From positions 128,001 through 192,000 of the forward strand of contig CAWBMV010000022.1 in the NCBI GenBank assembly GCA_963789955.1: 64,000 nucleotides of DNA, in the 5' to 3' direction. This document shows, in pieces, positions 13,234 through 36,314 of this stretch. The number at the start of each line of letters is the position of its first letter. The stretch's first letter is position 1. This DNA comes from an uncultured Candidatus Rokubacteria bacterium (GTDB lineage Bacteria > Methylomirabilota > Methylomirabilia > Rokubacteriales > CSP1-6). Both the position numbers and the translations under genes were made by a program. Below the pieces are notes generated by a model that worked only from the letters and a program-made list of their open reading frames with translations, ran no database searches and was not told where the DNA came from.

Positions 13234-13794
13234 ATGGGCGACCGCCTGGCGCCGATTCGAGGCGAGATCACCGAGATCGTCGGCGGGCTCTCGTCCGGTC
13301 GCACCAGCCATCTGCTCGCGTGTCTGGGCGAGGTCGTGGACCGAGGCGAGACCGCGGCGCTCGTCGACACCGAGGAGATCTTCGACCCGGGATCGGCCGC
13401 GTCGGCCGGAATGGACCTCCGCCGTCTCCTGTGGGTTCGTTGTGGAAGCAATCGTGAGGTGGCGCTTCGCGCCGCCGACATGCTCGTTCGCTGTCCGGGA
13501 TTCGCGCTGGTCGCGCTGGATCTGGGCGAGCGGGTGCCACGCCTGACGACGACCATGGCGTTTCGGCTGAAGTTCGCGGTGCGGCGAACCGACGTCGCCC
13601 TGCTGATCGTCGGTCGTCGCCGTCTCACCGGAGCGAGCGCGGCGCTGGCCGTCGAGACGCTCCGAGAGGGGATCGAGTGGGCCGGGCCGGGGGCCGCCCC
13701 CACGCGGCTCGCGCGCGTACGCACGACGACGCGTGTGCTCCGTGCTCGCGGCGGCGCGCCCGGACGGCAACCGTCGAGCTGGTGGAGCGCGTGA
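13234..13794 (+). CDS. imuA: ImuA, RecA-like mutasome accessory protein
   Basis: GEITEIVGGLSSGRTS, AALVD, GMDLRRLLWVR; directly upstream of imuB-dnaE2; TAGCAT 6 nt before the ATG. Confidence 0.8.
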   Translation: MGDRLAPIRGEITEIVGGLSSGRTSHLLACLGEVVDRGETAALVDTEEIFDPGSAASAGMDLRRLLWVRCGSNREVALRAADMLVRCPGFALVALDLGERVPRLTTTMAFRLKFAVRRTDVALLIVGRRRLTGASAALAVETLREGIEWAGPGAAPTRLARVRTTTRVLRARGGAPGRQPSSWWSA

Positions 13795-15314
13795 GCCGGT
13801 TCGCGTGCATCCTGGTCGAGCATTTCGACGCGGCAGCCGTCGAGCGGTGCGAGCCCGCGCTCCGCGAGCGCCCGCTGGCGATTCTCAATCCCCGGGTCGA
13901 TCGCCCGAACGTCGGGCGCGCCGGCGCTCCGACGGCCAGGATCATGACGACCATCGAGGCGAACGTCGCCGCCCGCGAGCAAGGCGTGCGCCCGGGCATG
14001 ACCGAGACAGAAGCGCGGGCCCGCTGCCCGATGCTGGTCACGCGGCCGCGGGTCGAGGAACACGTCGCGTCGGCGCGTCACGCGCTGCTCGAGGCCGCGC
14101 TGGCCGTTTCGCCACGGATCGAGGACGGCGGAGCGGGGCTCGCGTACATCGATACGGTCGGGCTCGAGCGGCTCATCGGCGATCCCGCGACGATCGGACG
14201 ACGTCTCGTGCATCAGGTGCGAGCCATCGGGCTGATCCCGCGCATCGGGCTCGCGGCGAGCCGCACCGCCGCGCGGATGGCCGCGTCGACGGGATCGGGA
14301 GCGGTGACCGTCATTCCGCCCGGACACGAGCGCGCGATGCTCACGAGGATTTCCATCGCCGCACTCGATCTTGCTCCGGATTTCACGGCGACGCTCGGAC
14401 GCTGGGGAGTCCGGACGCTCGGCGAGCTGGCCGCGCTGCCTCGCGAAGGCCTGGCCGCGCGCCTGGGACCGGCCGGACTCCGCGCTCACGATCTGGCGCT
14501 CGGTCTCGACCGCGATCCATTTCGTCCGTGGACGCCGCCGCCGTTCTGGGAAGAAGCGCAGGGGCTCGAGTGGGAGATCGACTCGCTCGGCGTCCTCGCC
14601 GGGGTGCTCGAGACCGTGCTGGAGCGGCTCTGCCGGCGACTCACGGCGGTGTCGCTCGTCGCCGATTCGCTCGAGATCCGGCTCGGTCTCGCCTCCGGCG
14701 GTCATCATGCGCGAGACGTCTCGCTCGCGTACCCGATGAGCGAGGTCAAGCCGATGCTCACCTTGGCCGTCCTCGACCTCGAAGCGCATCCACCACCTGC
14801 GGCGGTGACGCGAGTCACGATCAGCGCCCATCCGATCCGTACTCGAGAGGGGCAGGGAGGGCTCTGGCAACCGCCCGCGCCTGCTCCTCGCGATCTGGTG
14901 ACGGTGCTCGCCCGCCTCGCGGCTCTCGTCGGCGCCGACAATCTGGGATCGCCCGTGTTGCTCGATTCGCACCGCTCCGATGCCTTCACGCTGTTCGCGT
15001 TTTCGCCGCCGAGCGATGCCGCAGCGGCCGGTCGCCGTGGCGAAGAGTCCCCCCAGGCTGGGCGGCGGCTCGCGCTGCGAAGGATGCGGCCGGCGCGGCG
15101 CGTGGAGGTCGAGATCGCGGGCGAGCGCCCGGTGCGCGTGGAGTCGCGATCCGTCATGGCCTCCGCCGGTCCATGGCGAGGGTCAGGCGAGTGGTGGGAC
15201 CACCAGGCCTGGGCGCGCGACGAGTGGGACGTGGTGCTGGGTGACGGTGCGCTCTGCCGGCTCGTCCGCGATCGACTCGCGGGCCACTGGTATCTCGACG
15301 GCTTCTACGACTGA
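13791..15314 (+). CDS. imuB: ImuB, inactive Y-family polymerase homolog
   Basis: AREQGVRPGM, SPRIEDG, WGVRTLGELAALP, clamp-like QGGLW, C-terminal GPWRGSGEWW and RDEWDV; GTGA overlap with imuA. Confidence 0.88.
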   Translation: MSRFACILVEHFDAAAVERCEPALRERPLAILNPRVDRPNVGRAGAPTARIMTTIEANVAAREQGVRPGMTETEARARCPMLVTRPRVEEHVASARHALLEAALAVSPRIEDGGAGLAYIDTVGLERLIGDPATIGRRLVHQVRAIGLIPRIGLAASRTAARMAASTGSGAVTVIPPGHERAMLTRISIAALDLAPDFTATLGRWGVRTLGELAALPREGLAARLGPAGLRAHDLALGLDRDPFRPWTPPPFWEEAQGLEWEIDSLGVLAGVLETVLERLCRRLTAVSLVADSLEIRLGLASGGHHARDVSLAYPMSEVKPMLTLAVLDLEAHPPPAAVTRVTISAHPIRTREGQGGLWQPPAPAPRDLVTVLARLAALVGADNLGSPVLLDSHRSDAFTLFAFSPPSDAAAAGRRGEESPQAGRRLALRRMRPARRVEVEIAGERPVRVESRSVMASAGPWRGSGEWWDHQAWARDEWDVVLGDGALCRLVRDRLAGHWYLDGFYD

Positions 15315-15317
15315 TCC

Positions 15318-18300
15318 GTGTTCATCGAGCTGCACGCGCAGTCGGCGTTCTCGTTCCTCGAAGGCGCCGAGCATCCCGAGGCGTTCGCCGCCGAGGCCGC
15401 GCGCCTCGACATGCCCGCGATCGCCCTGGTGGACCGCGACGGCGTCTACGGCGCGGCCCGGCTGGCTCGCGCCGCCGCGACAGCGGGCGTGAAGCCGATC
15501 GTCGGCAGCGAGCTCACCTTGGCCGACGGCTCACGCCTTCCGCTGCTCGTGGAAGATCGCGAGGGCTACCAGAACCTGTGCCGCCTGATCACGCGGATGA
15601 AGCTCGGAGCCCCGAAAGGATCGGCGTCACTCGCCCTGGAACACCTCGAGCCGAGCACCGCGGGGCTGGTGTGTCTCACCGGCGGCGCACGCGGCCCGCT
15701 GGCGCTGAGGCTCGCCGCCGGTGACGACGACGGCGCCCGCCGGATCCTGGATCAGCTGGTCGCGCTCTTCGGGCGCTCGAGCTGCTTCGTCGAAGTGCAA
15801 CGCCAGTATTCGCGCGAGCAGGAACAGATGCTCCAGCGGCTGGTGACGCTCGCCCGCTCGGCCCGCGTGCCGCTGGTCGCGTCCAACCAGCCGCTCTTCG
15901 CGCGTCCCGAGGGGCGCCCGCTGGCCGACGTCTTCACCTGCATCCGCGAGAAGACCGATCTCGATCACGCCGGCCGCCGGCTCCTGGCGAACGGCGAGCG
16001 CTCGCTGAAGAGTGCTCACGCGATGACCGAGCTGTTCCGGGACTTGCCCGATGCCCTCGACAATACCGGCGAGCTCGCCCTGAGGCTCGCCTTCACCTTG
16101 AAGGACCTGGGATATCGGTTCCCGGAGTTCCCGCTTCCGCCCGGCCAGACTCCGCTGGGCTACCTGCGGGAGCTGACCGAGCGCGGCGTGCGGGCGCGCT
16201 ACGGCGAGGGCACGCTCGCCGCGCGCGCGCGGCACCAGGTCGCGCACGAGCTCGAGCTCATCGGCCGGCTCGACCTCGCGGGCTATTTCCTGATCGTCTG
16301 GGACATCGTCGAGCACTGCCGCACCCACGACATCCTGGTCCAGGGACGCGGCTCGGCGGCCAACAGCGCGGTCTGCTACGCGCTCGGGATCACGGCGGTG
16401 GACCCCGTCGGCATGGAGCTCTTGTTCGAACGATTCCTCAGCGAAGCGCGCGGCGAATGGCCCGATATCGATCTGGATCTCCCGAGCGGCGAGCGGCGTG
16501 AAGCGGTGATCCAGCACGTCTACCGTCGATACGGACGGCTCGGCGCGGGGATGACCGCCAACGTGATCACGTACCGAGGCCGGAGCGCGGCACGCGAGGT
16601 GGGCCAGGCGCTCGGGCTTCCGAGCGACATGCGCGATCGGCTCGCGAAGCTCGTCGCCAACTGGGGCTACCAGGATCCGGAGGAGCTCCTGACCAAGCAT
16701 CTGCCCGAGGCCGGCTGCGATCCGACCTCACCGCGCATCCGCCGCTTCGCCACGCTCTGGACGCGGATCCAGGATTTGCCGCGCCATCTCGGCCAGCACT
16801 CGGGCGGGATGGTGATCGCCGCGGGCCGGCTCGACGACGTCGTGCCCATCGAGCCCGCGACGATGCCGGGTCGGGTCGTCGTCCAGTGGGACAAGGACGA
16901 CTGCGCGGGGCTCGGCATCGTGAAGGTGGATCTCCTCGGGTTGGGAATGATGTCGGTGCTCCAGGATTCGCTGACCCTGGTGCGCGAGACGGGCGGCTCG
17001 GTCGATCTGGCGCAGCTGCCGCCGGATGATCCCGGCCGTGTACCGGAGCTTACAAGAGGCCGACACGATCGGCGTGTTCCAGGTCGAGAGCCGCGCCCAG
17101 ATGGCGACGCTCCCGCGCGTCCGGCCCGAGCGCTTCTACGACCTCGTCGTGCAGGTGGCGATCATCCGCCCCGGACCGATCGTGGGCGACATGGTGCATC
17201 CCTACATCCGACGCCGGCGCGGCCGCGAGCCCGTGACGTATGCGCATCCGAGCCTCGAGCCGATCCTCCGTCGCACGCTCGGCGTGCCGCTCTTCCAGGA
17301 GCAGCTCCTGAAGATGGCGATGGTGACCGCCGGATTCACGGCGACGGAGGCGGAGGAGCTGCGGCGTGCGTTCGGCTTCAAGCGGAGCGAGCGCCTCATG
17401 GCCGAGGTCGAGACGAAGCTGCGCGCGGGCATGGCGCGTCAGGGAATCCACGGCACCGCCGCCGAGGAGATCGTCCACGCGATCACCGCGTTCGCGCTCT
17501 ATGGTTTTCCTGAGTGTGTCGTCGGTGACACGCGGGTGATCGACGCCGATACCGGGCGCTGGGTGGCGATCGAGGACATCGTGAGCGGACGCGTCCGTGT
17601 CGAGAGCACCCTGGCGTGCGACGAGACACATGCGACTACGCAAGCGCCGCGTGCTCGCGGCGACGCCGAGCGGGCCCCGGATGGTCTTTCGCGTTCGCAC
17701 GGCCCTCGGCCGGGAGCTCATGGCGACAGCCGAGCATCCTCTACTCACGATGAGCGGATGGCGCGCACTTGCGAGTCTTCGTGTCGGCGACCACGTGGCA
17801 GCCGCGCGCGCGCTTCCTGCGCTTGGGCGACGGCGCTGGCCGCGGTACAAGCTCATCGTGCTCGCAGACCTCATCGCTGAAGGCAACCTCTGTCATCCCA
17901 CGACGTTCTATTTCTATACGACCGATCCGCGGCACCGTGACGAGTTCGTGGACGCCGTGCAATGTTTTTCCAATACGCGCGCGACCATCGCGCGCCATCG
18001 GAACTGCTACAGCGTGCACGTCCGCCGCAACGGGGAAGCGGGCCGGATCGGAGCTGTTGAATGGGCGCGGGCACTCGGAATCTGGGGCGCGAACGCGCGT
18101 GCGAAGCGCTTCCCGGCGGAGGTATTCGAGCTTCGCGCGCCGGATCTTGCGTTGCTGCTCGCTCGCCTCTGGGAGGGCGATGGCTCGCTGTCGTCGTCGA
18201 GTCATGCGTCGTACGACACGGCCTCCCGTCGTCTGGCGATCGAAGTCCAGCATCTCCTTTTGCGACTCGGGATCGTGTCGAGGCTTTACACTCGCTCACA

Positions 18301-19696
18301 CCTGTACCGGGAGCGCCGCGTCACCAGCTTCGTCGTCACGATCACCGGCCAGGAGAACTTGAAGTGGTTCTACCGACGCATCGCCTGCCGTTTCCTTGAC
18401 CAACGTAAGCGGCTGAAGGCGAGAGTCCTCGTGCGGGAGGCTGCTCAGCGACGGGCCTCCCGTGATGTCGTTCCGGTCGCAGTCAAAGCTCTCATCGATC
18501 GTGAGCGGCAGCATCGAAGGGTGACCTGGCATGAGGTAGGACATGGAGCCGGCGTCTCACTGCGGGCGCTGGTCTCTCCAGATACTTCGAAGCGCGGATA
18601 TCGTCGCTGGGTGATCGGCCGATTGGCCGGGTACTTTGACTCGCCCGATTTGGCTCGCCTGGCCGAATCGGACCTCTACTGGGATCGAATCCTGGCGATC
18701 GACGCGCTCGAAGTCCGGGAGACGTACGATCTCCACATCGAAGGCGAGCATAACTTTCTCGCGAACGACCTGGTCGTCCACAACTCACACGCCTCCAGCT
18801 TCGCGCTGCTCGCCTACGCGAGCGCGTATCTGCGCGTCCACCACTCGGCGGCGTTCTACGCGGCGCTGCTCAACAACCAGCCGATGGGGTTCTATCACCC
18901 GGCGACCATCGTGAAGGACGCGCAGCGACACGGGCTGCGTATCCTGCCGATCGATGTCACGCGCTCGCAGTGGCTGTGCACGATCGAGCCGACCGACCGC
19001 GGCGACCCGGCGATGCGGATGGGCTTACGGTACGTCCGAGGACTGCGCGAGCGGGTGGGCCGCGCGATCGTCGAGGCGCGCGAGGCGCGCGCATTCGGCT
19101 CGACCCACGATCTCGCTCGCCGCGCTCAGCTCGACCGTGACGAGCTGGAGACCCTCGCGGCCATCGGAGCGCTGGCCCCTCTCGGCGGCACACGCCGGAC
19201 GAATCTCTGGACGGTGGCGGCGCCGCATCCCGGACCGTTGTTCGCGGATCCGCCACGCGAGCCGAGCCCACTGAGCGACATGACCGACGTCGAGCGGCTC
19301 GCCGCCGACTACGCCGGCACCAGCGTGACGCTCGGGCGCCATCCGATGGCGTTGCGCCGCGCGGCGCTCCGGACCCGCGGCGTGCTGAGCGCGCGGGAGC
19401 TCTCCGCGGTGCAGGACGGCGCGAAGGTCCAGGTGGCGGGGAGCGTCATCGTCCGCCAGCGTCCGGGCACCGCGAAGGGCTTCGTCTTCCTGTCCCTCGA
19501 GGACGAGACCGGGATCGCGAACGTGATCGTGACGCCGCCGATCTTCGCGCGGCATCGCCTGGCGCTGGTGTCCGAGCCCTATCTCCTGGTCGACGGGATC
19601 GCGCAGCGGCAAGACGGCGTCATCTCCGTGCGCGCGCGCCGTGCCCAGGGGCTTCCGGCGCTCGGTCACCACGTTCCGTCTCACGACTTCGGGTAA
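15318..19696 (+). CDS. dnaE2: Error-prone DNA polymerase DnaE2 (ImuC), intein-containing; frame breaks near 17035 and 17630
   Basis: ELHAQSAFSFLEGA, GRGSAANS, PDIDLD, RHLGQHSGG, YGFPE-intein-SHA, RQRPGTAKG, C-terminal SHDF motif. Confidence 0.95.
17515..18784 (+). mobile_element. Full-length intein with LAGLIDADG homing endonuclease, about 423 aa
   Basis: N-terminal CVVGDTRV; block B ATAEHPLLT; LADLIAEG, LWEGDGS, VQHLLLRLGI; C-terminal TYDLHIEGEHNFLANDLVVHN followed by Ser; interrupts the conserved GFPE|SHA. Confidence 0.95.
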
Positions 19697-24836: not shown

Positions 24837-24927
24837 TGAGTTAAGATAGCCCCATGCCGGAGGCGGGGGAAATTCTCACCTCGAGGGGTCTGCTCGCCCG
24901 GTCTATCGGGATCACACGGAGAACGTC

Positions 24928-26596
24928 ATGAGCCAAATCAAAGTTCTGAGCCCAGTCGGTGTGGCTGCCGGCGACACGCTGAGCGTGCCGCCGCTGCCCG
25001 GATCGCTCGCCGGCCGCACGATCGGCTTCATCGACAACCGGAAGGCGAACTTCGATCTCCTCGCCGACGAGATCGGCGCGATCCTCTCCGCCGAGCATGG
25101 GGTCAAGACCGTCATCCGGCGGCGCAAGGCGAACGCCGCGACACCGGCCGCTCCGGAGATTCTCGCGGGCCTGGCGAAAGACTGCGACGTCGTCTTCGCC
25201 GGCTCGGCCGACTGAGGGTCCTGCACGTCGTGGAGTCTCCACGACGCCATCGAGCTGGCAAAGGCGGGAACCCCGAGTGCGGTCATCGGCACGACGGTCT
25301 TCCAGGGGCTCGCCCAGAGCGAGATGCGGGCGCTCGGCGTCTCGGGTCTTTCCATGGTCGCGATCGAGCATCCACTCGGCGGCGAGCGTAGCGAGGGCGT
25401 CGCCCGAAGAGCCCGCCAGGCCGTCGACCAGATCAAAGGCCTCCTCGGTAAAGCGGGCATCGGCGAAGCGAGCTTCGGCGCGCGCGAGATCGCGCGTGCG
25501 GAGCCGGCAAGCACCTCTCTCAGGCCACCCGCGGTCCAAGCCGGCCTCACGGACCCCGCTACAAACAAGCCCGCTACAACAGACGCCGTTACGGTAACCG
25601 ATACGCCGGAGGCCGTCCTCGCGGCCTTCTGCGAGCGTCAATGGTGTGATGGGCTGCCGATCATTCCACCCACCGAGGAGCGCGTGCAGGCCATGCTGGG
25701 AGGCGCGCCCGGCGCGCGCTCGCTCGGCGTGATGCCGCCGCTCTGGCGGCTCGCGACGCTCGAGAAGCTCGCGGTGAACGCCGTGATGGCCGGCTGCGAG
25801 CCCGCGGCGTTCCCGCTCATCGTCGCCGCGGTCGAGGCGATGCTCGACCCATCGTTCAACCTCTACGGCGTGCAGGCAACGACGCACTCGGTCGCGCCGC
25901 TCCTGATCGTCCACGGACCGATCGCCGCCGAGCTCGGCGTGCACTCCGGTAGTGGATGTTTCGGTCCCGGCTTCCGCGGCAACGCGACGATCGGTCGCGC
26001 GATCCGGCTCATCTTGCTGAACGTCGGCGGCGCCTGGCCGGGTCGTCACGATATGGCGACCCAGGGGAGCCCGGCGAAATTCTCCTATTGCATCGCCGAG
26101 CGCGCGGACGCGTCGCCCTGGGGCGCACTCCACGAGGACAACGTCGTCACCGTCTTCGGCGGCGAGCCGCCGCACAACGTGAACGACCACGTCTCGACGA
26201 CCGCCGCCGGCATTCTCGCGACGGTGGCCGACACCGCGGTCTCGCTCGGGTCGAACGTCGGCTGGTACTTTTCGCAGAGCCAGCTGCTCATCGTGCTGGG
26301 GCCGGAGCACGCCAAGACGGTCGCCGGCGACGGATTGAGCCGGGCCGACGTCCAGCGCTTCGTCTTCGAGAACGCGCGCCTGCCGCTGCGCACGTTGAAG
26401 CTCGGCGGCATGTGGGGCATCCAGGACTGGCCACCGCTGGATGAACGCCGTCACCGACGACAACGCACTCTTGCCGCAGGTGCCGTCGCCCGAGGACGTG
26501 ATGGTGATCGTCGCGGGCGGCCCGGGCAAGCACTCGGCGGTCGTCCCGAACTGCACCTTCAGTCGGGCCGTTTCGCGCCCGATCCGGCCGCTCTAG
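24928..26596 (+). CDS. UGSC-motif selenoprotein fused to a DGLP..PPT partner domain; Sec TGA at 25213-25215; frame break near 26435
   Basis: FAGSAD-TGA-GSCTSWSLHD continues in frame into ORF 25324 (DGLPIIPPTEERV, GPGFRGNATIGRA) and ends VAGGPGKHS...RPL; SECIS-like hairpin follows the TGA. Confidence 0.85.
25226..25246 (+). promoter_or_regulatory. Candidate bacterial SECIS element
   Basis: cgtcgtgga-gtc-tccacgacg, a perfect 9-bp stem with a G-containing loop starting at the 11th nt after the TGA. Confidence 0.75.
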
Positions 26597-28956: not shown

Positions 28957-29423
28957 AGGTTCTCAAGATCCATCCGGAGAAGTGCACGGGCTGTCTGCGC
29001 TGTGAGCTCGCCTGCTCGTACATGCAGACCGGCGACTACCAGCCCGCCAAGTCCGTGATTCGCGTCTCGCCCTTCGAGGGCCACACCTCCTATGCGCCCT
29101 ACACCTGCACCCAGTGCGCGGAGGGCTGGTGCATGACGGCGTGTCCGGTGGGCGCGATCACGATCAGCGCCGTCGGCGCCAAGGACGTCGTCGACGATCG
29201 ATGCGTGGGCTGCAAGCTCTGCACGATCGCCTGCCCGTACGGCACGATGTTCTACGACACGTCGACGCGCAAGGCCTTCAAGTGCAACCTCTGCGGCGGC
29301 GCTCCGGCCTGCGCCGAGGCGTGCCCGACGGCGGCCATCACCTACGAGGACGTCGAGACCGCCGACTGGCTCGGCGATTTCGCCCGCGAGCGGACCGCGC
29401 GGGTGCTCGTGGAGGCTCGCTGA
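28953..29423 (+). CDS. Multi-[4Fe-4S] ferredoxin subunit (AorA-like)
   Basis: Four Cys clusters: CTGCLRCELAC, CTQC..CMTACP, CVGCKLCTIACP, KCNLC..CAEACP; TTG start overlapping the upstream stop. Confidence 0.92.
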   Translation: MKVLKIHPEKCTGCLRCELACSYMQTGDYQPAKSVIRVSPFEGHTSYAPYTCTQCAEGWCMTACPVGAITISAVGAKDVVDDRCVGCKLCTIACPYGTMFYDTSTRKAFKCNLCGGAPACAEACPTAAITYEDVETADWLGDFARERTARVLVEAR

Positions 29424-30748
29424 TGGCGCGCCGGCACCTGATCATCGGCGGCGGCACCGCCGGCATGAACGCGATGCGGACGATTCGCGAGGAAGAGGTC
29501 GAGCGCTCGACGATCACCCTGGTGAGCGCGGAGAAACCCTATTCGCGGATGGTCCTGCCGTACTATCTCGATCGCTCGATCGCCGAGTCGCACGTGTTCA
29601 CCGCGACCGCGAGGGTGCTGGCCGATTGGGGCGTCAAGACGCACCTGGGCAAGCGCGCGACCGCGCTCGACACGAAGGCGAACGTGTGCACGCTCGACGA
29701 CGGCACGACGGTCGAGTACGACGACTGCCTGATCGCGACGGGCTCCTCTGCGGTCCGGGCCCCGGTTCCCGGCGCGGACGGGCCGGGGGTTCACTCGTTC
29801 TGGACCCTCGATCAGGCCGCGGCGTGCTCGCGCAGATCCGGCCGGGCAGCCACGTGGTCATGGTCGGCGCCGGCTTCATCTCGTTCACGATCCTGAACTC
29901 GATCCTCTCGCTCGGCGCCAAGCTGACGATCGTGGAGGTCGCGCCGCGCATCCTGCCGCGCATGATCGACGACACGGGCGCGGCGCTGGTCCAGACGTGG
30001 CTCGAGAAGCACGGCGTGGCGGTCCGCACGGGCGCGAAGCTCACCGCCATCGACGAGGCGAAGGGCCGGCGGCGGCTCAAGATGGCCGCGGGCGGCGATC
30101 TCGTCGCCGACGTCGTGATCATGGCGACCGGCATCCGGACGAACCTCGACTGGCTCAACGGCTCCGAGGTGACGATCAATCAGGGCGTCGTCGTCGACGA
30201 TCATCTGCGCTCGAGCGTCCCGAACGTCTACGCCGCCGGCGACGTCGCCGAGGGGCGCGACCTGATCTCGCAGACCAACGCGGTGCACGCCATCGAGCCG
30301 ACGGCCCAGGAGCACGGGCGCGTGGTCGGCGCCAACATGGCCGGCAAGGACGTGCGCTATCGCGGGCAGCCTCATCATGAACATCGTCGAGGTCTGCCAC
30401 CTCGACGTCGCGTCGTTCGGCGCCTGGGACGACGCGAAGGCCGAGACGATGAGCGGCGTCAAGGCCGATCGGCCGGCGTATCGCAAGCTCCTCTGGCGGG
30501 GCGATCGGCTGACCGGCGCGATCATCCTCGGCCCCTCGACCGACATCTGGACCACCAACGACGTCGGGATGCTCAAGGGGCTCGTGCAGTCGGGCGTCTC
30601 GCTTGGAGCCTGGAAGGCGCACCTGAAGAAGAACCCGTTCGACATCAAGCCCGCGTTCATCGCCACGAAGACGACGAGCACCTTGCTTCCCGAAACCGTC
30701 CTGGGACGCCCGTCGAAAGCGCCCGGGGAAAGTCCGGTGGCCGTATGA
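29423..30748 (+). CDS. FAD/NAD-dependent oxidoreductase (AorC-like); frame breaks near 29815 and 30368
   Basis: IIGGGTAG, LIATGS, VGAGFI, NVYAAGDVAE. Confidence 0.88.
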
Positions 30749-32696
30749 GTCCAGCAACCGCGAGCGCACCGAAGCAGCTCAAGAGCGAAACCCCTCACGG
30801 CCGCGCGCCCCGGCGGATTCGCCGGCAAGCTCCTGCGCGTCGACCTCACGCGCCGCAAGTGCTGGGCCGAGCCCTGGGGCCCGGAGCGAATGCGCGAGCA
30901 GCTCGGCGGCGTCGGTCTCGGCGCGATGATCCTCTATCGCGAGACGGCGGCGAAGGGCGGCAAGAAGAACGTCGCGTGGGACCATCCGGACAATCGCCTC
31001 GTGCTGGGCACGGGCCCGCTCGCCGGCCTGCCGGTGTGGGGCACCGGCGGTCTCACCGTGTGCACGATCGGGGCCGGCACCAACGGCCCGACCTCGACGC
31101 AGGCCAACGGATTCTTCGGGACCAATCTCAAGTACTGCGGCTACGACGCGATCATCATCCAGGGGCAGTCGAAGGACTGGGTCTACCTCTACATCAACGA
31201 CGACGTCATCGAGCTTCGCGACGCCAAGTCGTTGATCGGCCTCGACACCTGGGAGACGCAGAACGCGCTCTACCGTGAGACCGGTCTCGTCGGCCATCAG
31301 CTCTCGGTCTACTCGATCGGCCCCGCCGGCGAGAACCTCGTCAAGTTCGCCGCCATCCAGGGCGACTTCGGTCACGTCGCGTCGAAGAACGGCTGCGGCG
31401 CGGTCATGGGCAAGAAGCGGCTCAAGGCGGTCGCGATCGTCAAGGGCACGAAGGCGCTGCGCGCCGCCGATCCGCGCGGGCGTGATGCAGGCCGCCGACG
31501 ACATGTCGCACGATCTCCGGACCGACCCCTCCGCGCGCTCGCTCTACGAGTACGGCACGCTGCCCGGTGTCGTGAACCTGTCCAAGATGGGCGCGCTGCC
31601 GATCAAGAACTACACGACCAACCTGACGTCGAACGTCGCGGGCGCCGACATGGCGGCGTGGGAGGCGCCGAAGCTCCGCGAGAACTTCGACCACCGCGGG
31701 CACCAGTGCAACGCGTGCGGCATGCACCACTGCCACATGTCGGTGATCCGGCACGGCGAGAAGAAGGGCCAGATCGTCGACGAGCCCGAGTACGAGGGCT
31801 GGTCGGGCTGCGGCTGGGCGATCGGCGCGACCGACCGCGACGGCGTCGCCTGGCTCAACACCGAGTGCGACAGCGCGTGCGTCGACGTCAACGAGTGGGG
31901 CTGGCTCTGCGGCTGGGTCATGGAGTGCCAGGAGAAGGGCTACATCACGCGCGAGCAGCTCGGCTTCGAGCTCAAGTGGGGCGATATCAAGGGCGCCGCC
32001 CGTCTCCTGCAGATGGTATCTCGACGCGAAGGCTTCGGTGACGTGCTCGCCGAGGGCGTCAAGCGCGCCGCCGAGAAGCTCGGCGGACCCGCCAAGGACT
32101 GCGCGGTCTACATCGAGAAGGGCGCGACGCCCCGCGGCCACGACCACCGCGCGCGATGGGAGGAGATGCTCGATACGTGCACCTCGTCCACCGCGACGAT
32201 GGAGACGGGCAATCCCGTGCACCCGACGGAGATCGGCCAGCCCGCGCGGATCAATCCCTTCGACGGCGAGCAGGTCGCGAAGTACGTCGCCGGGCTCCGC
32301 GGGCGGCGCAGCTTCGAGGATTCGCTCGGCATCTGCATCTTCACGTCGCGTACCCGGCTCGAGAACATCTGCCGCGCGCTCTCGGCGGCGACGGGCTGGA
32401 CCTTCACGGTCGAGGAAGCGCAGCGCTTCGGGCGGCGCACCGCGATCATCAATCGAGCGACCGCGCTCCGGTGCGGCCACACCGGCGCGATGGAATACCC
32501 GTCGGCCCGGTACGGCTCGACCCCGGTCGACGGGCCCGCGAAGGGGCAGGCCATCCGCGCGCAGTGGGAAAAGATGCTCGACACCTGGTACGCCGAGGTC
32601 GGTTTCGATCGCAAGACGGGCAAGCCGTGGCCGAAAACCCTGAAGGATCTGGGTCTCGACTGGCTCTCGAAGGACCTCTGGGGCAAGAAGTCGTAG
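30745..32696 (+). CDS. Aldehyde ferredoxin oxidoreductase family tungstopterin enzyme; frame breaks near 30795 and 31480
   Basis: GKLLRVDLT, SIGPAGENLV, GAVMGKKRLKAVA, CNACGMHHC, EPEYE, LAEGVKRAA, DSLGIC. Confidence 0.92.
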
Positions 32697-34722: not shown

Positions 34723-35097
34723 CCCGCGTCCTGGCGCGGGCGGCCGCCGCCGCTGCCCTCGTGCTGCTTCTGGCGGCGAGTACCTGAAGCGCACTCACTG
34801 CTCCTCGAGTCGTCGCCCGCCGCGGGCGCGACCCTGAGCGAAGGGCCGCCGCAGATCTCACTGCGCTTCAACAACCGCATCGAGAAGAAGCTCTCGAGCA
34901 TCCGCGTGCTCGACGAGCGGGGCGCATCGCGGCCGGCTACCGTGCTGGCGAGTGACGGCGCCGCCGACCGGCTGACCGCCGCGGTGTCCGCGCTGACGGC
35001 CGGCGCCTGGCGTGTCGAGTGGCAGGTGCTCTCGACGGACGGCCACATCGTCAGCGGTAACTTTTCGTTCCGCGTCGCGCCCTCGGCCAGGCGATGA
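34719..35097 (+). CDS. copC: CopC-like copper-binding protein; frame break near 34783, start uncertain
   Basis: AHSLLLESSPAAG, LRFN, WQVLSTDGHIVSG; signal peptide in the adjacent frame. Confidence 0.8.
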
Positions 35098-36228
35098 GTC
35101 CGGCCAGCCAGCGCCTCGCCGGCCGGGCCACCGTCGAAGGAACGCGGCGCTACGCGGACAAGCTCGCCGGACGACTGGCCGCCGGGCATTTCCGTGAGCT
35201 CGCGGGCGGAGTCGCCGCCTCGACGCTCGGCCTCGGCACCTACCTCGGCCCCGAGGACGGCGCCACGGACGTCCTCTACCAGGACGCCGCGGTTCGCGCC
35301 CTCGAGCTCGGCGTCAACCTCCTCGACACCGCGGTGAACTATCGCCACCAGCGCAGCGAGCGCGCGATCAGGACCGCGCTCGGTATCGCGATCAGTCGAG
35401 GCGTGATCCGTCGCGACGAAGTCGTGGTGGCGACGAAGGGCGGCTTCATTCCATTCGACGGGGCGGTCCCGCGCGATCCGCGCGCCTATTTCGCGGCGAC
35501 ATACGTCGAGACGGGGATCGTCAAGCCGGGCGACGTGGCGAAGGGCGGACACTGCATGACTCCGCGGTACCTTCGCGACCAGATCGACCGTAGCCGCGCC
35601 AATCTCGGCCTCGAGACGCTCGACGTCTACTACATCCACAATCCCGAGACGCAGCTCGGCGAGGTCAGCCGCGCGGAGTTCATGACCCGCATGCGCGCCG
35701 GCGTTCGGCGCGCTCGAGGAGGCGGTCGCGGCGGGGAGCATCGCGCAGTACGGGACCGCGACGTGGACCGGCTATCGCGTGGATCCAGACGATCCCGGCT
35801 ACCTCTCGCTGTCCGATCTCGTCGCCGTCGCCCAGGACGCCGGCGGAGCCGATCACCACTTCAAGGTGATCCAGCTGCCGTACAACCTCGGGATGACCGA
35901 AGCCTTCACCCGCGCGAACCAGCGAGTGAAGGACCGCGTGGTGCCGGTGCTCGAAGCCGCCCGCGAGCACGCGATCGCCGTGGTCGCCTCGGCGTCGCTC
36001 CACCAGGGGCAGCTCACGCGGTTGCCGCCGATGATGGCGGAGTACGTTCCGGGGCTCACGACCGACGCGCAGCGCGCGCTCCAGTTCGTGCGCTCGACGC
36101 CCGGCATCACCGCGGCGCTCGTCGGAATGAAAACACCGGCCCATGTCGACGAAAACGCGACGGTCGGCACGCTCGCGCCGATGGGCTGGGAGCAGTTCCA
36201 GCGCCTGTTCAGCGCGGCGGGCGGCTGA
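35094..36228 (+). CDS. Aldo/keto reductase; frame break near 35705
   Basis: LGLGTYLG, DTAVNYRHQRSE, VATKGG, LDVYYIHNPE, IQLPYN. Confidence 0.9.
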
Positions 36229-36314
36229 TTCCCCGGCCTCGCCGGCCGAGGCGGCGGTGCCCGGTCGTGCCGCAAAACATTGCACAGGGCAACTGCGTCG
36301 GGTAGGGTGAACGG

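Follow-up and report, generated by a model that had tools for sequence, protein, structure and literature searches.

The UGSC gene at positions 24928..26596 of the window, by which we mean the whole 64,000-nt stretch of DNA analyzed, very likely encodes a single selenoprotein in which an in-frame TGA is read through and the UGSC domain is followed in frame by a large second domain, the DGLP or "Unknown_1" partner. With about even confidence, we regard this 555-aa protein as a thioredoxin-system-driven, selenoprotein B-like reductase of a small organic substrate. The locus itself is an ordinary member of the UGSC family, and its type of fusion has been in print since 2008; what the present analysis adds is the likely kinship of UGSC with GrdB/PrdB, the occurrence of partner-thioredoxin reductase fusions, and the Robertmurraya operon.

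The coding sequence (24928..26596, plus strand, as are all features of the gene given below) is preceded by a Shine-Dalgarno-like GGAGA (24918..24922) that was recognized in the sequence 5 nt upstream of the ATG. ORF 24928-25215 terminates at the TGA at 25213-25215, between AGSAD and GSCTSWSLHD, and the same frame stays open beyond it. As assembled, the frame breaks near 26433-26435 (+1 base) and continues to 26811, and the conserved C terminus with its TAG (26594-26596) sits in another frame than the assembled upstream part. The frame-shifting extra base at 26433..26435 is most likely an assembly error, since the contigs of four of four independent runs have a one-base gap near 26434; one of these contigs is otherwise identical over 116 nt. 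The C terminus is intact in 13 of 14 fused orthologues. The original prediction of a read-through product of about 555 aa thus holds once the extra base is discounted, a frame break that it had not mentioned; it also anticipated that standard gene callers would split the gene, and indeed the best 120 database matches cover 60 to 79% of the query and none covers its full length. Single-base frameshifts split several other genes in the window (17026-17880, 29423-32696, and 35094-36305), which fits assembly indel errors. Genes that we take from their translations to be ImuB-like and DnaE2-like lie at 13677-19696; the polymerase is frameshifted and interrupted by what resembles an intein, with C... 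and ...HN/S at its junctions and an endonuclease-like segment between them. Contigs from RNA libraries span the UGSC gene, one of them crossing the TGA, and such contigs show neither transcription nor the identity of the TGA. No sigma-70 promoter was found at the gene, and no convincing terminator.

The assignment of the TGA to selenocysteine (U96, 25213..25215) was examined in orthologous loci, taken as the best 30 from 61 genomes of the order of the Rokubacteria-like host. Twenty-eight of these, including the window's own, contain the motif, and the other 2 lack that part. All 28 have TGA at the Sec position and TGC at 25222..25224, the codon of Cys99, which is likely the resolving thiol of the UxxC motif. 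Homologues with Cys at the TGA, for which the original prediction had proposed a search, do exist: a set of 150 representatives (50% identity) yielded 50 alignments spanning both domains, and after 3 double-partner proteins were dropped, 29 of the remaining 47 full-length homologues had Cys in this column. In the other 18 (P0127, P0136, and P0143 among them) the column holds Ser, Ala, Ile, or Leu and the conserved residues of the partner domain are retained; Sec/Cys therefore appears dispensable in some members. In 80 loci sampled from many phyla, 72 of 77 UGSC domains carry TGA and 5 a Cys codon. Every one of the 61 genomes searched contains between 1 and 11 UGSC matches, and TGA is present in all 150 of the matches listed, which amounts to a systematic annotation gap. 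The genome also encodes the machinery whose presence had been proposed as a check, with selA, selB, and the gene for tRNA-Sec (selC) clustered at G000:C1:731972-736707 and selD on contig C6.

The predicted SECIS element just 3' of the TGA is a perfect 9-bp stem with a GUC loop (25226..25246; CGTCGTGGA-GTC-TCCACGACG) whose first base is the 11th nucleotide after the TGA. The bSECIS model demands a loop of 3 to 9 nt with a G in its first two places, 16 to 37 nt from the UGA, and a stem of 4 to 16 bp with an energy of at most -7.5 kcal/mol (given in PMC13188914). The hairpin lies within these limits, having a 3-nt loop that starts with GU, 19 nt from the UGA, and a folding energy of -13.5 kcal/mol. 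A single hairpin is modest evidence only: 39 of 1,500 random TGA sites of the contig scored as well (199 of 1,500 passed a loose model), and stems of at least 9 pairs arose in 2.5% of 5,000 synonymous recodings (P = 0.025). Its folding energy was not unusual against synonymous recoding (P = 0.21). The conservation of the hairpin is strong evidence. Over the 28 loci, the share of the major codon is 0.98 within the hairpin versus 0.74 outside, and all 28 have the rare Ser codon AGT, which provides the GU of the loop. Among 69 distinct sequences, two-sided changes were found at 8 of the 9 pairs, and none of 500 shuffles attained the pairing or covariation score of the hairpin, with the reservation that the signal is weaker at the three outermost pairs and that kinship among sequences inflates such tests. 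The paired fraction was 83% at the hairpin versus 21 to 47% in slid controls. In a simplified SECIS test, 2 of the 9 paralogous hairpins of the genome fell short of the energy cutoff. No Rfam family was found anywhere in the 64,000-nt window.

The first domain (residues 6 to 174, 24943..25449) belongs to the UGSC family, as had been proposed: it scored 158.8 bits against PF24696 (cutoff, 25) and 128 bits against NF041046 (cutoff, 125), and the U/C-G-S-C motif falls at the Sec position of the profiles. A sequence search of the PDB gave no significant match. In a fold search with the modeled domain, the best structural matches were flavodoxin-like or Rossmann-like folds, and we predict a flavodoxin-like alpha/beta fold. 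Named relatives among the homologues come from Rokubacteria/Methylomirabilota.

Nine UGSC loci occur in the genome, and TGA is present in every one. Of these, six are fusions and three stand directly after a DGLP gene; two further DGLP genes (G000:C1:495725-496516 and C1:156515-157277) have no UGSC neighbor. Two pairs of UGSC loci are near identical and share their neighbors (G000:C13:30660-32381 with C8:38170-39891, and G000:C3:53207-54817 with C4:1346-2188); they may reflect recent duplication or coassembled strains (contamination, 5%). The orthologous loci are divided into 15 fused and 13 split. This split form, together with the three unfused loci of the genome, agrees with the statement in the original prediction that the partner is often a separate neighboring gene. 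In related genera, the two halves are overlapping genes, and stop and start codons overlap in 6 of 8 split orthologues among those listed. In a tree of 45 rows, we counted five state changes, with the fused genus nested among split forms; the tree was midpoint rooted, has two long branches, and includes one "split" row that seems to be misassembled. Within the fused genus, a single motif-bearing locus is split (L027:500-700); it appears to include an inverted duplicate of itself and is likely a misassembly. The tree suggests that the fusion of the present clade was derived from an overlapping gene pair. Fusions in the reverse domain order also exist. At the 80 sampled loci, the partner is fused to the UGSC domain or lies no more than 1.5 kb from it in 76 of 77 cases, a figure that is biased because loci were ranked by their coverage of the fused query.

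The partner domain (about 330 aa, 25600..26593) has its DGLP motif at 25648 and conserved Cys codons at 25795 and 26089; in full-length homologues, D, N, R, E, and W residues are nearly invariant. It has no family in Pfam or NCBIfam. When a partner protein that occurs naturally on its own was searched against the ESM Atlas, only unnamed clusters came back, the nearest named entry being UGSC at 0.88, and profile comparisons of the partner with GrdE, with the N-terminal half of GrdB, and with itself for internal repeats gave no match. The two domains are joined by a variable linker (25444..25602) that is predicted to be disordered and coincides with the stop/start junction of the split orthologues. 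Its composition (A11, T7, G5, and P5 of 53 residues) bears out the Thr/Pro/Ala-rich linker that had been predicted. The spacing from Sec to WxDGLP ranges from 118 to 143 aa among fused orthologues. In the model of a fused orthologue (pTM, 0.93), pLDDT drops below 50 at residues 184 to 203, that is, in the linker, and the UGSC domain is predicted to pack on the large partner domain. The partner also occurs in other architectures. Proteins of about 720 aa contain the partner domain twice in tandem and have no UGSC (P0145, P0225, and P0305 to P0312). A small NifU-like CxxC domain, whose Pfam match (E = 0.008) falls short of the cutoff, is fused at either end of the partner (P0147, P0184, P0252, and P0253). 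In P0313 a family III CoA-transferase is fused to the partner; genes for family III CoA-transferases also adjoin the UGSC locus in genomes of family f4 and at G000:C3/C4.

Profile-profile comparison by hhalign aligned UGSC with GrdB/PrdB at a probability of 95% (E = 2e-8) over 69 columns, with Sec over Sec; when all Cys were masked, the probability was 84%, and a reversed control gave 0.3%. When the GrdB/PrdB profile was run over the whole genome, 7 of the 9 UGSC loci outranked every unrelated segment. Searched in the opposite direction, with UGSC as the profile, the genome did not give its two PrdB-like genes among the best 40 rows. UGSC does not reach the threshold of PF07355, and the genome search gave only two other loci at E values of up to 1. 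From these comparisons, the UGSC domain is likely a distant relative of the catalytic Sec module of GrdB/PrdB, a kinship that is confident over only about 70 residues. The partner is not of the GrdE/PrdA type (probability of 0.1% against a GrdE profile that is shallow, with 7 rows). The genome carries two PrdB-like selenoprotein genes with in-frame TGA and UxxC (G000:C22:52088-52950 and G000:C1:590600-591950; L042 and L043). Neither GrdE/PrdA nor GrdA was found in this 87%-complete genome, in searches for GrdA/GrdE components that had no positive control signal. No solved relative of GrdB was found in the PDB.

Fusions of the partner point to the source of electrons. A thioredoxin-reductase domain with CxxC is present in 31 of 119 longer partner homologues. 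Such fusions are spread over two or more parts of the tree, and one has the reverse order; 22 labeled rows fall within one 24-row clade, and seven with another motif cannot all belong there. For the main clade, 9 metagenome loci were examined; upstream DNA was readable at 8, and at each of these a Sec-UGSC gene stands directly in front of the partner-thioredoxin reductase gene, a count that covers this one clade only. One partner homologue is fused to a ferredoxin-thioredoxin reductase (FTR) beta domain, and the present genome encodes a stand-alone thioredoxin reductase.

Robertmurraya sp. 2P01SA, a named single-chromosome record with selB in the genome, has a fused Sec gene in an organic-acid catabolic operon (L128:3775-13235) that also encodes an enoyl-CoA hydratase (ECH), MmgE/PrpD, a TRAP transporter, DUF6282, Ldh_2, a thioesterase, and MaoC and stands behind a PrpR-like activator. 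Beyond the orthologous clade, 70 loci were compared, and the most frequent neighbor family reached no more than 14 of them. The commonest were short-chain dehydrogenases, luciferase-like monooxygenases, TctC and other uptake proteins, and enoyl-CoA hydratases, followed by acyl-CoA dehydrogenases, CoA-transferases, MmgE/PrpD, and TauD, all of them families that are common in general. The window's own neighbors (an FGGY kinase, EamA, and an NAD-dependent dehydrogenase) either differ in strand or are simply syntenic, and they are silent on the substrate. Synteny with kinase/zwf, EamA, and aldehyde-oxidoreductase genes was considered as a functional clue and rejected, since it holds within the family only.

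The "redox enzyme" label of the original prediction is plausible for the fusion, and a reaction can be proposed. The partner domain would bind and polarize the substrate, the role of GrdE/PrdA in selenoprotein B systems but without kinship to them. The selenolate of U96 would then attack a carbon-heteroatom or heteroatom-heteroatom bond, as is described for protein B in PMC10838667, C99 would release the product and leave an Se-S bond, and NADPH/thioredoxin reductase, directly or via thioredoxin, would rereduce that bond. Paralogues might serve different substrates in organic-acid catabolism. We treat the two domains as one functional unit because all nine UGSC loci of the genome are fused to or directly behind a DGLP gene, the split orthologues overlap (6 of the 8 listed), both orders of fusion occur, and the model reached a pTM of 0.93. 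Electron supply by the thioredoxin system is proposed because the partner fuses to thioredoxin reductase behind Sec-UGSC genes, and a catabolic role because the Robertmurraya fusion lies in an organic-acid catabolic operon.

Unlikely, in our judgment, is a second role for the same fused selenoprotein, that of a thioredoxin-fed general stress or repair oxidoreductase acting on peroxide, sulfoxide, or disulfide. The UxxC motif would suit it, and this is the role assumed for most UxxC selenoproteins; the thioredoxin-reductase and FTR-beta fusions of the partner, AhpD/CMD-like genes near some paralogues, and the grouping of UGSC with Trx-like redox proteins in PMC2398784 point the same way. However, the best structural matches are flavodoxin-like or Rossmann-like, a conserved partner of 330 aa is needed, 1 to 11 copies are kept in each of the 61 genomes, and the operon in Robertmurraya is catabolic. 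Less probable still is that U96, C99, and the two partner cysteines hold a metal or Fe-S cluster where the two domains meet, in a hydro-lyase/isomerase or cluster-handling protein; in the alpha subunit of class I fumarate hydratase, three Fe-S cysteines are the cluster ligands. Lower again in probability is selenium-independent catalysis by the partner, with the UGSC domain as a regulatory or activating redox switch. The 18 of 47 full-length fusions without Cys/Sec, the two DGLP genes of the genome without a UGSC neighbor, the tandem DGLP-DGLP proteins, and the near invariance of the partner's D, N, R, E, and W residues would all be compatible with it, but the costly UGA plus SECIS is kept in 72 of the 77 UGSC domains at the 80 sampled loci and the UGA in all 150 matches listed among relatives, and UGSC appears akin to a catalytic Sec module. 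Finally, that the TGA is a true stop or a sequencing error, leaving two separate genes or a pseudogene, is very improbable: the assembly does have indel errors and several broken ORFs, but the TGA recurs in 28 of 28 orthologues and is replaced by Cys in homologues, the hairpin combines frozen synonymous codons with covariation, selA, selB, selC, and selD are present, and the profile of the UGSC family runs across the TGA. The same evidence upholds the read-through originally predicted.

Returning to the selenoprotein B-like reductase, the family-level evidence makes the function-less UGSC accessible to experiment as an enzyme of two domains for which an electron donor can now be named. Natural variants with Cys in place of Sec would not require Sec machinery for expression, and Robertmurraya, with its informative operon, is a candidate test system. 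More tentatively, UGSC and its partner could form a third, widespread branch of selenoprotein B chemistry that is self-contained, is driven by NADPH/thioredoxin, and uses a substrate-binding domain of undescribed fold. If this were true, abundant soil and aquatic bacteria would have multiplied a UGSC-partner enzyme to cleave many organic compounds reductively, beyond the clostridial Stickland world.

Compared with the UGSC family as described (NF041046 and PF24696; PMC1976440 and PMC2398784), the protein shares the U-G-S-C motif and the UGA with SECIS, and the descriptions there point to no difference in kind. In the text and Fig. S1A of PMC2398784, Zhang and Gladyshev (2008) presented UGSC fused to "Unknown_1," with the same domain order and the same partner as here; compared by eye, the block AVN..MAGC.P....G...T......NG of Fig. 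S1A corresponds to residues 281 to 335 of the present protein. The in-frame fusion that the original prediction described is supported, but the novelty it implied is not: the fusion was already in print, occurs at six loci in this genome, and is widespread in both domain orders. Unlike the 2008 example, the present fusion was found in a Rokubacteria-like genome from soil, which holds nine paralogues. That paper suggested a Trx-like fold, whereas the best match of our model is flavodoxin-like. The family is listed without function in the 2026 review PMC13188914, and the available parts of PMC2398784, PMC13188914, and PMC1976440 contain no link of UGSC to GrdB/PrdB or thioredoxin reductase (subscription literature was outside the scope). 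GrdB/PrdB (PF07355) and UGSC have a related strand-U-x-x-C-helix-E-x-x-G-x-P-T-strand module with Sec in register, and in both the enzyme comes in two parts with several paralogues per genome; the chemistry of GrdB and the substrate-specific multiplication of protein B are covered in PMC10838667. Unlike GrdB/PrdB, UGSC does not have the third Cys of UxxCxxC. Judged by sequence, the UGSC fusion would work like GrdB/PrdB but is not one of them.
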